Below are positions 34,139 to 50,823 of a DNA stretch of 52,018 bases, in pieces. The DNA comes from an uncultured Chromatiaceae bacterium (GTDB lineage: Bacteria; Pseudomonadota; Gammaproteobacteria; JAADHS01). The position numbers and the translations under genes are program-made. The DNA lies in contig CALZJI010000152.1 of NCBI GenBank assembly GCA_945787615.1, forward strand, positions 1-52,018, written 5' to 3'. A model generated the notes under the pieces. That model was given only the letters and a program-made list of their open reading frames with translations. It was not told where the DNA came from and did no database searches. Each line of letters starts with the position of its first letter. Position 1 is the first letter of the stretch.

Positions 34139-35881
34139 ATGACGTTAGCGCTCTACGGACTGGGAGTATCGAGAGGGATTGCCATCGGCCAAGCTTACGT
34201 GTTGGCGCACGATGAACTAAGGATAACCGAATACAAAATCGCGGCCGATCAGGTAGACAAGGAAATCGCGCGATTTGAAGATGCCCTCGATACGGCACTC
34301 CAACAACTGCAACAGGTTCGCTACCAGATTCCAACTAACACCCCCGTTGATATTCAGTCATTCATTGATACGCATCTTTTGATGCTGAAAGATGCCGCAC
34401 TTGCTCAAGTACCCATAGATACAATAACAATGCGACGCTGTAACGCAGAATGGGCACTACAGCTGCAACGTGATGCACTGGTTAACGTCTTTGAGGCGAT
34501 GGATGATGCCTACTTGCGTACTCGCCGGGATGACGTGGATTTCGTTGTTAGCCGGGTGCAACGAATTTTGCTAAACAGATCCGAGCATCCGTCAGAACTT
34601 CTGGGCAATCCATTGCGCGATGCTATCGTGTTGGCCGATGATTTGTCGCCGGCGGACGTGGTGTTAATGCAACATCAGGGTATAGCGGCATTTATTACGG
34701 AGTTTGGTGGCACGACTTCCCATACCGCAATACTTGCTCGTAGTCTGGGTATTCCGGCGCTAGTGGGTGTGCACAACGCAAGACGTTACCTCAAAGATGG
34801 CGAGTTGTTGATTGTTGATGGTCGCCGGGGGGTGTTATTAGCAAGCCCCGACGACGCTATCGTGGAGTTTTTCATTAGCCGCCGACAGCAAGAGAGCGCG
34901 ACGGCCGCGGAACTGAATAAGCTAAAAGGGCGGCCTGCGATAACTCACGATGGCAAGAAAGTTAACTTGTTGGCTAACGTGGAACTGCACGAGGATCTCG
35001 TGGCTATCGAACGGGTTGCCGCTGAAGGTATCGGGCTTTACCGAACCGAAATGCTATTTATGAATCGTCCTGATCTGCCCAGCGAAGAAGAGCAGCTCGA
35101 GACCTACTTGAACGTGTTAAATGCTGTCAGTGGCGCGCCTGTCACGATCAGGTCTCTGGATATTGGTGGAGATAAAAACGTTACGTGGCCGCAGCAAAGT
35201 TGCAGCATTGTATCGAATCCAGCACTTAGCCTTCGGGGCATACGTCTATGTCTAAAGGAGACGGCGGTCTTTCGCGTCCAGCTACGTGCCATATTGCGGG
35301 CCTCGGCTTACGGCGAAGTACGATTGATGCTGCCCATGTTGAGCAATTTGGGAGAGTTAACGCAAGTAAGGCGGCTTATCGACACGGTAAAAAAGGAACT
35401 AACCGCTCAAGGCCTCAAATTCAATTCCAAACTCCCCGTGGGCGGTATGATCGAAGTGCCCGCCGCGGCCCTAAGCGCGGAAATGTTTGCAAAATACCTG
35501 GATTTTTTATCCATTGGAACGAACGATCTAATTCAGTATACGGTCGCAGCAGATCGTATTGATGATGCGGTGAGCTATTTGTATGACCCGTTACACCCAG
35601 GTGTTCTGCGCCTCATCAAAATGACGATTGACGCAGGAAACACTGTGGGGATTCCCGTCGCTATGTGTGGTGAAATGGCGGGGGATATTCGGTACACGCG
35701 TTTATTACTGGGACTGGGTCTGCGTGAATTTAGTATGCATCCAGCGTTTTTGCTCGAGGTAAAACGGCGGGTAAACAATAGTGACTTTGATCACCTTAAA
35801 AAGCAGGTGGGCGAGATATTGCCGGTTGCTGAACCGGCCGTGATTGTCGAATTGGTCGACACCTTGAACGACGACCTCTAA
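34139..35881 (+). CDS. ptsI: PEP-protein phosphotransferase (Enzyme I, no GAF domain)
   Basis: GGTTSHTAILARS, GIGLYRTE, SIGTNDLIQY, MCGEMAG; 580 aa. Confidence 0.93.
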   Translation: MTLALYGLGVSRGIAIGQAYVLAHDELRITEYKIAADQVDKEIARFEDALDTALQQLQQVRYQIPTNTPVDIQSFIDTHLLMLKDAALAQVPIDTITMRRCNAEWALQLQRDALVNVFEAMDDAYLRTRRDDVDFVVSRVQRILLNRSEHPSELLGNPLRDAIVLADDLSPADVVLMQHQGIAAFITEFGGTTSHTAILARSLGIPALVGVHNARRYLKDGELLIVDGRRGVLLASPDDAIVEFFISRRQQESATAAELNKLKGRPAITHDGKKVNLLANVELHEDLVAIERVAAEGIGLYRTEMLFMNRPDLPSEEEQLETYLNVLNAVSGAPVTIRSLDIGGDKNVTWPQQSCSIVSNPALSLRGIRLCLKETAVFRVQLRAILRASAYGEVRLMLPMLSNLGELTQVRRLIDTVKKELTAQGLKFNSKLPVGGMIEVPAAALSAEMFAKYLDFLSIGTNDLIQYTVAADRIDDAVSYLYDPLHPGVLRLIKMTIDAGNTVGIPVAMCGEMAGDIRYTRLLLGLGLREFSMHPAFLLEVKRRVNNSDFDHLKKQVGEILPVAEPAVIVELVDTLNDDL

Positions 35882-35910
35882 CCGGCATTTTTCGCGAGGC
35901 CGCGAATAAT

Positions 35911-36067
35911 ATGCCGCGGAAATACATAATTGTCCAAAGATTGCGCCGGATTTTAGCTCAGATTCAAGGCGCGGCAAGGGGCGCATAATCGCTTTATGTA
36001 ACCCTTGCAACACAGAAGCTGTGCCAAAAGACAAGCAAGATTGGATGATTATTTGTTTCCGCGGCCC
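35911..36067. mobile_element. MITE-like element family A, copy 3
   Basis: Same core as copies 2 and 4 with a 3-bp deletion; left tip decayed (ATGCCGCGG); right end TTTCCGCGGCCC then TTA. Confidence 0.85.
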
Positions 36068-36070
36068 TTA

Positions 36071-36327
36071 GGACTCGCGTCAAAATTAATTCACATTTTG
36101 GACGTCGATCCATCTCGCCTGGCTGCGTTGCCTACATGGACGTAGGTAAGGGGCGAGAGCACGCCTACAGGGACGACGCACATGGATGTGCTAGTGTCAT
36201 GAGAGGGCAGGAGCCCGAAGTGACCGTAGGTGGTAGGGCAACGCAGGACGCAGTTGCCGAGGACGCGGTAGCTTTGCCAGGCGAGCGCCTCAACGCCCAA
36301 AATGTAAATTAATTATGACGCCAGCCC
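36071..36327 (+). mobile_element. MITE-like element family C, copy 1, carrying six GGA motifs mostly in hairpin loops
   Basis: TIRs GGACTCGCGTCAAAATTAATTCACATTTTGG / CCAAAATGTAAATTAATTATGACGCCAGCCC; TTA direct repeat on both sides; inverted copy at 50420. Confidence 0.85.
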
Positions 36328-36369
36328 TTAGGTCTCCGGTTGGTTGTTCCGTCCTGATATAGTCCAAAG

Positions 36370-37728
36370 ATGTCTGAACAAACAGAAGTCGAAAACAGTC
36401 AAGAGCGGCTTAAAACGTTTAAGCGGGCGCTGGAGCGTCGTGCCTATTCGGAAGCTCGTTCAATCATCAACGGGCTGCATCCGGCGGAAATAGCGTTGTT
36501 ACTGGAGTCGCTGCCACCGGATGAACGCGAGCCCGCATGGGACTTGGTGGACCCTGATCATGGCGGGGACGTACTCCTTCATGTTAATGAGGATTTGCGA
36601 GCGGGATTTATTAGGGATATGGCGCATACCGAGCTGGTCGCAGCCACGGAGGGGCTAGAAACCGACGATCTCGCGGATATTATCCAAGATCTCCCGGGGC
36701 AAGTGATCCAAGACCTGTTGAAGTCGATGGATCACCAGGACCGGATACGCCTTGAGGCCGTTCTCTCCTATCCAGAGGACACGGCCGGTGGTTTGATGAA
36801 CACCGACACCATCACGGTTCGACCCGATGCAACGTTGGACGTGGTGCTTCGGTATTTGCGATCACGAGGCGAAGTTCCGGACATGACCGACAGTCTGATC
36901 GTGGTAGATCGGGACGATACTTTTTTAGGTATTTTGCTAATCACCGACCTATTAATCAAATCACCATTGGCGACGGTCGCTGATGTGATGACACGGGAAG
37001 TGGAAGCGATCTCCGCGCTGACTCCTGCTCACGAGGTTGCGACGATATTCGAACATCGCGATCTTATTTCGGCGCCGGTTGTTGACATAGCGGGCAAGCT
37101 CGTCGGCCGTATTACGATCGATGATGTGGTCGACGTCATTCGCGATGAGGCGGACCATTCGCTATTGAGTATGGCGGGACTAAGCGAAGAAGAGGACATG
37201 TTTGCGCCTGTCGTTGTGAGCGCGCGTCGCCGTGGTATCTGGCTGGGTCTAAATTTAGTGACGGTGCTGATTGCGTCATGGGTCATCGGCCTGTTTGAGG
37301 CGACCATTGAGAAAGTAGTGGCGCTTGCTGTGTTAATGCCTATTGTTGCCAGCATGGGCGGAATAGCCGGAAGCCAGACCTTGACTATCGTAATACGGGG
37401 CATGGCACTAGGCCAGATCGGGAACACCAACGCGCCATGGTTGATGGGTAAAGAATTAGCAGTCGGGGCGCTAAACGGAGTCTTGTGGGCCCTCGTAATT
37501 GCGTTGATTACCATGTTCTGGTTCGACGATTTTCAGATCGGCGTAATTATCGCGTCGGCTATCGTGATTAACCTTGTAGTGGGGGCGCTAGCAGGGGTTA
37601 CGATTCCGTTCGCTATGCGTAAATTTGGCGCGGATCCCGCTTTAGGCGGGTCGGTACTATTGACCGCAGTGACGGATGCGGTAGGCTTTTTTTGCTTCTT
37701 AGGGCTCGCAACCGTGTTTTTGCTCTAA
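36370..37728 (+). CDS. mgtE: Magnesium transporter MgtE
   Basis: N-domain, CBS pair (GRITIDD), MPIVASMGGIAGSQT, DPA...TAVTD. Confidence 0.96.
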   Translation: MSEQTEVENSQERLKTFKRALERRAYSEARSIINGLHPAEIALLLESLPPDEREPAWDLVDPDHGGDVLLHVNEDLRAGFIRDMAHTELVAATEGLETDDLADIIQDLPGQVIQDLLKSMDHQDRIRLEAVLSYPEDTAGGLMNTDTITVRPDATLDVVLRYLRSRGEVPDMTDSLIVVDRDDTFLGILLITDLLIKSPLATVADVMTREVEAISALTPAHEVATIFEHRDLISAPVVDIAGKLVGRITIDDVVDVIRDEADHSLLSMAGLSEEEDMFAPVVVSARRRGIWLGLNLVTVLIASWVIGLFEATIEKVVALAVLMPIVASMGGIAGSQTLTIVIRGMALGQIGNTNAPWLMGKELAVGALNGVLWALVIALITMFWFDDFQIGVIIASAIVINLVVGALAGVTIPFAMRKFGADPALGGSVLLTAVTDAVGFFCFLGLATVFLL

Positions 37729-50419: not shown

Positions 50420-50823
50420 GGGCTCGCTTCAAAATTACTTCGTATTTTTGGGTATTGAGGCGCTCGCCTGGCAACGCTTCCGCGTCCTCGATTGCCGTTC
50501 CCGACGCAATTCTACCACCTACGGTCACTTCGGGCTCCTGCCCTCTCGTGACACTAGCGCATCCATGTGCGTCGTCCGTGCAGTCGTGCTCACGCCCCTT
50601 GCCTACGTCCCTGTAGGCAAAGCTTCCGCGTCCTCGGCAACTGCGTCCTGCGTTGCCCTACCACCTACGGTCACTTCGGGCTCCTGCCCTCTCATGACAC
50701 TAGCGCATCCATGTGCGTCGTCCCTGTAGGCGTGCTCTCGCCCCTTACCTACGTCCCTGTAGGCAACGCAGCCGGGCGAGAGGGATCGACGTCCAAAAAG
50801 TGAATTAATTTTGACGCGAGCCC
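50420..50823 (-). mobile_element. MITE-like element family C, copy 2, with 146-bp internal tandem duplication
   Basis: Reverse complement of 36071-36327 plus duplicated unit (50470-50615, 50616-50761); ends GGGCTCGCTTCAAAATT / AATTTTGACGCGAGCCC; flanks TTA and TAA. Confidence 0.87.

Follow-up and report, generated by a model that had tools for sequence, protein, structure and literature searches.

What is the array of GGA-containing hairpins that lies just upstream of the mgtE gene in an uncultured Chromatiaceae bacterium, and why does it sit inside a small element with inverted ends? The window, that is, the whole stretch of 52,018 nucleotides analysed here (contig CALZJI010000152.1 of assembly GCA_945787615.1), carries at positions 36071-36327 a 257-bp non-autonomous element that has no open reading frame (ORF) and ends in terminal inverted repeats (TIRs). 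A preliminary description regarded this element as a transposon that spreads binding cassettes for the global regulator CsrA. The reading that I prefer, with a probability of about 0.65, is that the element is a composite selfish repeat of two layers, a miniature inverted-repeat transposable element (MITE) and separate two-hairpin units with GGA loops. Judged by the copies found in the genome, the cargo is a second repeat class which is independent of this transposon.

Is the cargo a simple array of hairpins? A nesting grammar was derived by comparing copies with and without insertions. The cargo consists of 48-51-nt units of two hairpins each, with A-N-GGA-N loops, and the units are either nested in one another's GGA loops or arranged in tandem. 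The interior of the element is composed as follows (positions in the window).

36125-36161, plus strand: 5′ part of the outer 48-nt unit U, with the hairpin CCTAC-ATGGAC-GTAGG, which fits (A/U)CANGGANG(U/A) exactly
36162-36173, plus strand: 5′ part of the 48-nt unit XZ, inserted in U at GAGAGCA^GGACGCGG
36174-36225, plus strand: unit Y of about 51 nt, in which the linker TAGT joins GCAC-ATGGAT-GTGC to a long hairpin that ends in GGGC-AGGA-GCCC
36226-36260, plus strand: 3′ part of XZ, in which GTAGG closes the split hairpin and GGCAAC-GCAGGACGCA-GTTGCC follows
36261-36275, plus strand: 3′ tail of the outer unit U (GGACGCGGTAGCTTT)

Unit U is made of the hairpin CCTAC-A.GGA.-GTAGG, a spacer, and GC-AGGAC-GC, and its tandem copies have a period of 47-48 nt. 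At GAGAGCA^GGACGCGG, U accepts either the 48-nt XZ or a variant, XZ′. The loop of the first XZ hairpin (CCTAC-AGGGA...) is in turn split by Y, which is inserted directly after the GGA, and a further 48-nt unit, W, is inserted in the second Y loop at GGGCA^GGAGCCC (34 of the 36 W copies). W, XZ, and XZ′ are all 48 nt in length and follow a common two-hairpin plan with different stems, while the loops are kept as A[T/G]GGA[T/C]. The hairpins named in the preliminary description are all present, and the six GGA motifs it placed on one strand are confirmed (six GGA and no TCC on the plus strand of 36123-36275). Good stems were found for CCTAC-ATGGAC-GTAGG, GCAC-ATGGAT-GTGC, and GGGC-AGGA-GCCC; GC-AGGAC-GC and CCG-AGGACG-CGG have only two to three closing pairs, and CAGGGACG is the split loop of a hairpin interrupted by another unit.

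The genome, a 4.06-Mb assembly of 616 contigs that is 85% complete, was searched for both layers; the similarity of its MgtE to records of metagenome-assembled genomes points to an uncultured gammaproteobacterium. At a coverage of at least 0.9, there are 176 copies of U, 74 of Y, 45 of Z, 48 of Z′, 36 of W, and 47 of an AT-rich unit. Of the 74 Y copies, 49 are preceded by ...GGA and 16 by a further Y; the remaining nine follow other sequence or a contig edge. Since composites get copied whole, these nesting counts are not counts of separate events. In total, 179 loci with GGA units were found, and 78 of them have no transposon end within 200 bp, although 26 of these 78 lie near contig ends. 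The end-free loci include solo Y, solo W, and arrays of the YY and YYY types. Solo units also occur at sites free of GGA, such as a W on contig C67 and, in other genomes, a Y in clpB and a Y in recQ.

Conversely, does the outer layer need the cargo? Its parts are the following.

36068-36070, no strand: target-site duplication, left copy (TTA)
36071-36122, plus strand: left terminal frame, made up of the inverted repeat (GGACTCGCGTCAAAATTAATTCACATTTTGG...) and an inner stretch specific to the end
36276-36327, plus strand: right terminal frame with the inverted repeat, including a weak outward promoter-like site
36328-36330, no strand: target-site duplication, right copy (TTA)

The inverted arms (36059-36108 and 36290-36339) are 50 nt each and 80% complementary. 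Across the genome, 212 end cores were found with up to two mismatches. They include 47 complete end pairs, which delimit elements of 87-404 bp, and 118 unpaired ends, 56 of which lie within 450 nt of a contig end. Among the 43 complete copies with both flanks readable, 28 have identical 3-nt flanks (TTA in 17, TAA in nine, CTA in one, and ATA in one), and in eight more the flanks differ only at the middle base (TTA versus TAA). Thus, the multicopy non-autonomous element with a 3-bp duplication that had been proposed is borne out, and with TIRs, a target duplication of fixed length, and many short copies lacking a transposase, the family has the properties of a MITE. The commonest size class is 155 bp (14 copies), which has an AT-rich centre of 44 nt and no GGA hairpins. 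Together with the 87-bp and 104-bp copies, this class makes up 16 of the 47 complete copies, and these 16 show no similarity to the cargo of the element at 36071-36327. An element with the same ends and a different cargo was also found in another genus of the family (locus L032, G004:C22:5411-8467, at about 1500-1710); its cargo includes one reverse-oriented U-like unit, and it is flanked by the end of an rpsO-like gene and the start of a pnp-like gene.

No autonomous partner was recognized. Five DDE_Tnp_1 matches in the genome have no TIR within 2.5 kb, and DDE_Tnp_4 gave no match in the genome. When the unpaired ends were ranked by the longest ORF on their inner side, the ORF starts at the top 25 of 118 read as host genes, in an inspection made with no family search on them. 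Since the assembly is 85% complete and split into 616 contigs, the missing transposase carries limited weight. As a separate observation, GGA units were also seen in elements of a related family whose ends have diverged (...AAAAATAACTTCACATTTTGAAC... and ...CTCAAAAATGTAAACTTATTTTTGC) at C208:13219, C424:353, C62:36773, C127:4939, C65:16, and C531:757.

Is the GGA loop itself kept? In the U and Y hexaloops, only the two N positions of A-N-GGA-N vary: the mismatches by loop position are 1, 52, 1, 0, 1, and 20 in 173 U copies and 0, 12, 0, 0, 0, and 16 in 74 Y copies. This agrees with the earlier remark that the base beside GGA changes and GGA stays. The 10-nt consensus WCANGGANGW, which has three exact matches in the element, occurs nine times in the window, where 4.55 ± 2.11 are expected, and six of the nine lie in the two element copies. 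In the whole genome, 345 of 866 matches fall within the repeat-unit loci, which amount to 1.04% of the genome. ANGGAN is the top hexaloop class on 5-bp stems, with 291 of 10,608 readings versus about 41 under a uniform spread. Two further hexaloop classes on 5-bp stems, TTGGAA/TTCCAA (107 hairpins in the genome) and CGAAGT/ACTTCG (62), are probably other repeat families. The plus strand of 36123-36275 folds at −62.2 kcal/mol (z = −3.92), and none of 200 shuffles is as good.

Are such units found elsewhere? A species-representative collection was scanned with a 24-nt pattern over the first hairpin of Y. At least 79 stretches were found in several gammaproteobacterial groups and in other phyla. 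Among the matches listed are Gammaproteobacteria (Acidiferrobacterales, Methylomonas, Kangiella, Dokdonella, Porticoccaceae/SAR92, Thiohalomonadaceae, and a tubeworm endosymbiont), Bacillota (Lysinibacillus, Effusibacillus, and Bacillus), and two metagenome-assembled genomes of Eremiobacterota. Of 401 genomes sampled evenly across the class, 14 have the Y pattern with at most one mismatch, while a reversed-pattern control gave no match in the 401 genomes. The copy number is 108 in the window's genome (G000) and 35 in the next richest one; most carriers have one to ten copies. A distant-mode search of plasmid and phage collections with the 55-nt Y unit gave no match.

The second hairpin of Y and its loop are not constrained by the search pattern. 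In an alignment of all 81 complete units from the loci of other genomes and the window's Y, the second hairpin is paired in 84-87% of the cells, and its stems covary: 21 cells are changed on both sides, compared with 4.6 in shuffles, and none of 500 shuffles reaches the observed covariation score. GGA is present in the second loop of 61 of the 81 units in register, or of 70 if a small shift is allowed. The base after this GGA is free (T in 38, A in 12, C in 20, and G in 11). By eye, the 11 units lacking the loop GGA were divided into six inverted doublets, two with a further insertion at the GGA point (clear in L126, less so in L186), and three plain losses. The covariation of the second hairpin together with the kept GGA is the strongest evidence in these alignments for selection on the loop GGA. 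The GGA loops persist in paralogous units whose stems differ, as well as across phyla, and are on this comparison a selected feature of the units. Nesting at a GGA loop recurs in L126, which belongs to another order, and unit Y is itself the unit conserved across orders and phyla. In six loci (L134, L139, L148, L157, L178, and L189), the first half of Y is followed by an inverted Y, giving REPIN-like inverted doublets.

Units also lie in genes of other genomes. By crude longest-ORF calls, 46 of 82 units are inside long ORFs, 31 in the sense and 15 in the antisense direction. A 51-nt Y unit is inserted in frame in a clpB-like gene of Methylomonas rosea (L176:7449-7502) and in a recQ-like gene of a Methylomonas species (L196:6434-6487), adding 17 residues (DAQG.ASVAG...) in each case.

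What could the loops be recognized by? The hairpins ACAUGGACGU, ACAUGGAUGU, and ACAGGGACGA fit 5′-(A/U)CANGGANG(U/A)-3′ exactly. This is an RsmE-based consensus that is quoted together with a consensus from systematic evolution of ligands by exponential enrichment (SELEX) in the available text of PMC6849547. Thus, the earlier proposal of a hairpin array with loops fitting the CsrA/RsmA consensus holds. The GGA-loop sites of the units come in pairs, and paired sites are expected for the dimeric CsrA, according to the accessible part of PMC4383904. The csrA gene, whose presence the preliminary description wished to see confirmed, was found by a family search (92.5 bits). It is likely, by a modest degree, that RNA of the GGA strand binds CsrA, as predicted from the loop sequences. 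Among the carriers available in culture, those of Methylomonas and Kangiella would allow the CsrA idea to be examined. As to csrA itself, it was also found in 43 of 50 other carrier genomes (four of four and 39 of 46), and the seven carriers lacking it are small assemblies of 1.3-3.1 Mb. Five genomes of the Acidiferrobacterales type (G158, G160, G162, G164, and G198, reached via L124, L126, L128, L131, and L193) have four to 12 CsrA-family matches each, many of which are partial and inside longer ORFs; most other carriers have one.

The preferred account of a composite selfish repeat can be put as follows. The outer layer would be a MITE remnant with inverted ends of about 50 nt, which duplicated a 3-bp TWA target and reached more than 100 copies. 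The inner layer would be the 48-51-nt units of two hairpins, each hairpin with an A-N-GGA-N loop, which may multiply on their own: in tandem, nested in GGA loops, solo between genes, and in frame in genes of other genomes. These units may have colonised the centre of the transposon. If transcribed, the GGA strand would be a high-affinity ligand of CsrA dimers, since its loops are paired and agree exactly with the optimal site; the repeats, with their hundreds of sites, could titrate CsrA.

Several observations weigh against this account or parts of it. The copies of a unit are related by descent, and the copy counts are therefore not independent events. Within the genome, all columns are highly conserved, and the GGA columns are not significantly less mutable than the others, an outcome that the preliminary description had listed as counting against its reading: mismatches are 1.2% at GGA versus 1.7% elsewhere (Mann-Whitney P = 0.28-0.45; polymorphic columns left out). 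Of the proposed contrast between conserved GGA loops and covarying stems, the part that stands is that in other genomes, described above, and the within-genome columns show no significant difference. Stem mismatches in 64 canonical rows favour no strand (12 G-T and nine A-C), so that the structure could work at the DNA level or in RNA from either of the strands. The minus strand of 36123-36275 also folds well, at −47.6 kcal/mol (z = −2.51, three of 200 shuffles as good). By crude longest-ORF gene calls, 23 loci between co-directional neighbours in the window's genome are sense and 22 antisense, or 18 and 18 after removal of the loci inside called ORFs; between co-directional genes of other genomes, four are sense and 12 antisense. 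The co-occurrence with csrA carries little weight, because csrA is common in the class.

Might the loops act at the DNA level? In this explanation, which I consider somewhat unlikely, the GGA loops are recognition or target sites for copying of the units, for example by an enzyme acting on single-stranded DNA hairpins or by template switching at hairpin tips, and the likeness to CsrA sites is coincidental. Nesting at GGA loops on three levels (XZ in U, Y in XZ, and W in Y), seen again in L126, would be accounted for, as would the tandem arrays and inverted doublets, the frequent residence in long ORFs including in-frame copies in clpB and recQ, the unbiased orientation, and the wobble pairs that favour no strand. 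Moreover, features kept among selfish copies usually reflect needs of spread. However, a candidate enzyme was not found: three Y1_Tnp matches in the genome (on contigs C87, C326, and C602), which could have pointed to a RAYT-type transposase, are not flanked by units. The surroundings of those on C87 and C326 contain neither a unit locus nor a unit-type GGA-loop hairpin, C326 having two 4-bp hairpins of an unrelated kind whose loops contain TCC; for C602, the table of unit loci lists none nearby. The solo W on C67 and the Y copies in clpB and recQ sit at sites without GGA, and each nested composite form may trace to one event and have been copied afterwards. Finally, an exact 10/10 fit to a protein-RNA consensus with only its N positions free would be a notable coincidence.

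A bolder extension of the composite-repeat reading is unlikely. It holds that the units form a class of tiny mobile elements found in several phyla, which home into GGA loops, their own included, and tolerate being inserted in frame in genes. Their spread would depend on CsrA in one of two ways: the units would use it as a host factor, or they would together form a copy-number-variable load of high-affinity sites that shifts global post-transcriptional regulation. Homing into GGA loops would explain the nesting, and the window's genome contains at least 108 Y units as well as the 345 consensus sites in repeat loci.

Does the transposon, instead, spread CsrA-binding cassettes to the benefit of the host or the element, as sponge RNAs or by placing neighbours such as mgtE under Csr control? 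The neighbouring features, given for context, and the second copy in the window are listed below.

34139-35881, plus strand: upstream gene with PEP-utilisers_N, PEP-utilizers, and PEP-utilizers_C domains
36370-37728, plus strand: mgtE, the downstream gene, outside the element
50420-50823, minus strand: second element copy, 404 bp, inverted, with a cargo of two U-XZ-Y blocks and the flanks TTA and TAA

The upstream gene is read as ptsI, encoding enzyme I of the phosphotransferase system (PTS), from its domains; no search gave this name. The second copy has the loop variants AGGGA, ATGGA, and ACGGA. As had been noted earlier, the element is sense to mgtE and ends 42 nt before its start (36370). 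The cargo is likewise sense to ptsI, contains three exact consensus sites, and lies in a genome with csrA, all of which would suit a regulatory cassette. Models of CsrB, RsmY, and RsmZ found nothing in the 85%-complete assembly at their gathering scores (best 21.8 of 71 bits for CsrB, 16.1 of 57 for RsmY, and 20.9 of 44 for RsmZ), and the best CsrB match is a Y-Y-Y-Z′ tandem array at C220:5083-5332 (21.8 bits, E = 7.7e-4). This array has no transposon ends, and the 400 nt of C220:5000-5400 contain 15 GGA and one TCC. The RsmZ-model match at C43:4425-4535 was considered as a sponge candidate and rejected, being mostly a terminator hairpin with three GGA. The same hypothesis has been raised for TwoAYGGAY RNAs in the available text of bioRxiv 10.64898/2026.09.22.753630.

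Nevertheless, this explanation is quite unlikely. The transposon is not a dedicated carrier, with 16 of the 47 complete copies (including all 14 of the 155-bp class) devoid of GGA units and 78 of the 179 unit loci devoid of ends; the units spread without it. Their orientation to neighbouring genes shows no sense bias, which speaks against both the sponge and the Csr control of host transcripts that had been suggested. The many copies inside genes are a further point against an RNA role selected by the host. A search of the element for terminator-like sites found none, and the only promoter-like site on its plus strand is a weak sigma-70-like one at 36274-36303 (TTGCCA, 18 nt, CAAAAT; 9/12), which faces outward to mgtE. 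This site lies in the conserved right frame and, if it is real, many element copies would carry one. A look-up of sequencing runs for positions 34800-37600 listed none. An adaptive sponge or cis-regulatory role of the units is likewise quite unlikely; most probably, the element in front of mgtE is a neutral insertion. A further inverted repeat, with arms of 25 nt (35913-35937 and 36041-36065, 84% complementary, 103 nt apart), lies in the spacer between ptsI and mgtE, immediately ahead of the element, and the insertion site adjoins its right arm.

The last alternative, a G-rich palindromic repeat that merely happens to contain GGA, is extremely improbable: although the single copy at 36071-36327 lies within the composition expectation, both in its GGA count (six versus 4.33 ± 1.51 in dinucleotide shuffles, P = 0.21) and in its GGA in loops with at least three closing pairs (four versus 1.95, P = 0.11), the 10-nt consensus is strongly enriched, paralogous units and different phyla retain the loop GGA although the stems and neighbouring bases change, and the reversed pattern is absent from the 401 genomes.

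Do the units belong to a known RNA family? Rfam gave no match in the whole window at gathering scores, and only three noise matches in 36000-36400 at E ≤ 10 (two small nucleolar RNA models and one CRISPR repeat). The TwoAYGGAY model (RF01731) has no match in the genome at E ≤ 1 or in 36000-36400 at E ≤ 10, and the Bacillaceae-1 model (RF01690) has none in the genome at E ≤ 1. Since Rfam finds neither family in the genome, I did not file the units in either. They nevertheless behave in the manner of both families. The units and TwoAYGGAY both have two hairpins with loops of the AYGGAY type (here ATGGAT, ATGGAC, AGGGAT, and AGGA(N)), and the TAGT linker is also present, in UAGU-like form, in RF01731 instances of other genomes of the class. 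Both are multicopy with strong variation in copy number, and some copies of both are within coding sequences. In the RF01731 instances of other genomes of the class, a TAGT-like linker joins an AYGGAY hairpin to a second GGA hairpin, which stands on a long basal stem. In contrast, the units here are 48-51 nt long, lack the long basal stem, are nested, and reside inside a TIR element. Read on the reverse strand, Bacillaceae-1 RNAs likewise show a pair of hairpins, whose loops are AGGAY. The Y-like unit of Effusibacillus (L163) overlaps an RF01690 match on the opposite strand, and RF01690 matches lie in the same 8-kb locus as the unit in Lysinibacillus (L135) and Bacillus (L164). However, only one of the three Bacillota units overlaps an Rfam match. 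With CsrB, RsmY, and RsmZ, the units share arrays of GGA hairpins fitting the CsrA/RsmE consensus, but they are dispersed in hundreds of copies rather than present as one or a few regulated genes, and the element shows no dedicated promoter or terminator.

Small palindromic repeats and MITEs of bacteria include Correia, ERIC, and RUP elements, the repetitive extragenic palindromic (REP) sequences and REPINs with their RAYT, the Rickettsia palindromic elements, and the small dispersed repeats of cyanobacteria. The present element resembles them in its TIRs and short duplication, the lack of an ORF, the high copy number, and the fold-back structure. In-frame copies inside genes are shared with the Rickettsia elements, and nesting of small repeats in other repeats with the cyanobacterial ones. 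It differs from them in carrying as cargo another repeat class, which is independent of it and is defined by GGA loops. A literature search returned no paper linking CsrA sites to MITE or REP elements.

The idea of a CsrA-binding mobile repeat is itself not new in kind, as far as the available parts of two reports go (PMC4333381; bioRxiv 10.64898/2026.09.22.753630). Gardner and Eldai proposed that CsrA is bound by TwoAYGGAY RNAs and by Bacillaceae-1 RNAs read as the reverse complement, and noted that the strand of Bacillaceae-1 is uncertain (PMC4333381). For Pseudomonas TwoAYGGAY, Li et al. described extreme variation in copy number, 1,693 of 16,086 matches inside coding sequences, flanking repeats, and variants with extra AYGGAY hairpins. 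They suggested multivalent Csr/Rsm sponges and a mobile-element-like expansion, leaving the link between mobility and regulation unresolved (bioRxiv 10.64898/2026.09.22.753630). Compared with what these accessible texts contain, the nesting at GGA loops, the residence in a TIR element, the unit sizes of 48 and 51 nt, and the cross-phylum and in-frame copies of Y are new.

What does this mean for the bacterium? CsrA, a global regulator, is itself under the control of sponge RNAs. If dispersed mobile sites of high affinity, numbering in the hundreds, are transcribed, the copy number of the repeat would itself be a regulatory variable. The window's genome is an extreme case, with 108 copies of one unit compared with at most 35 in the other 400 sampled genomes.

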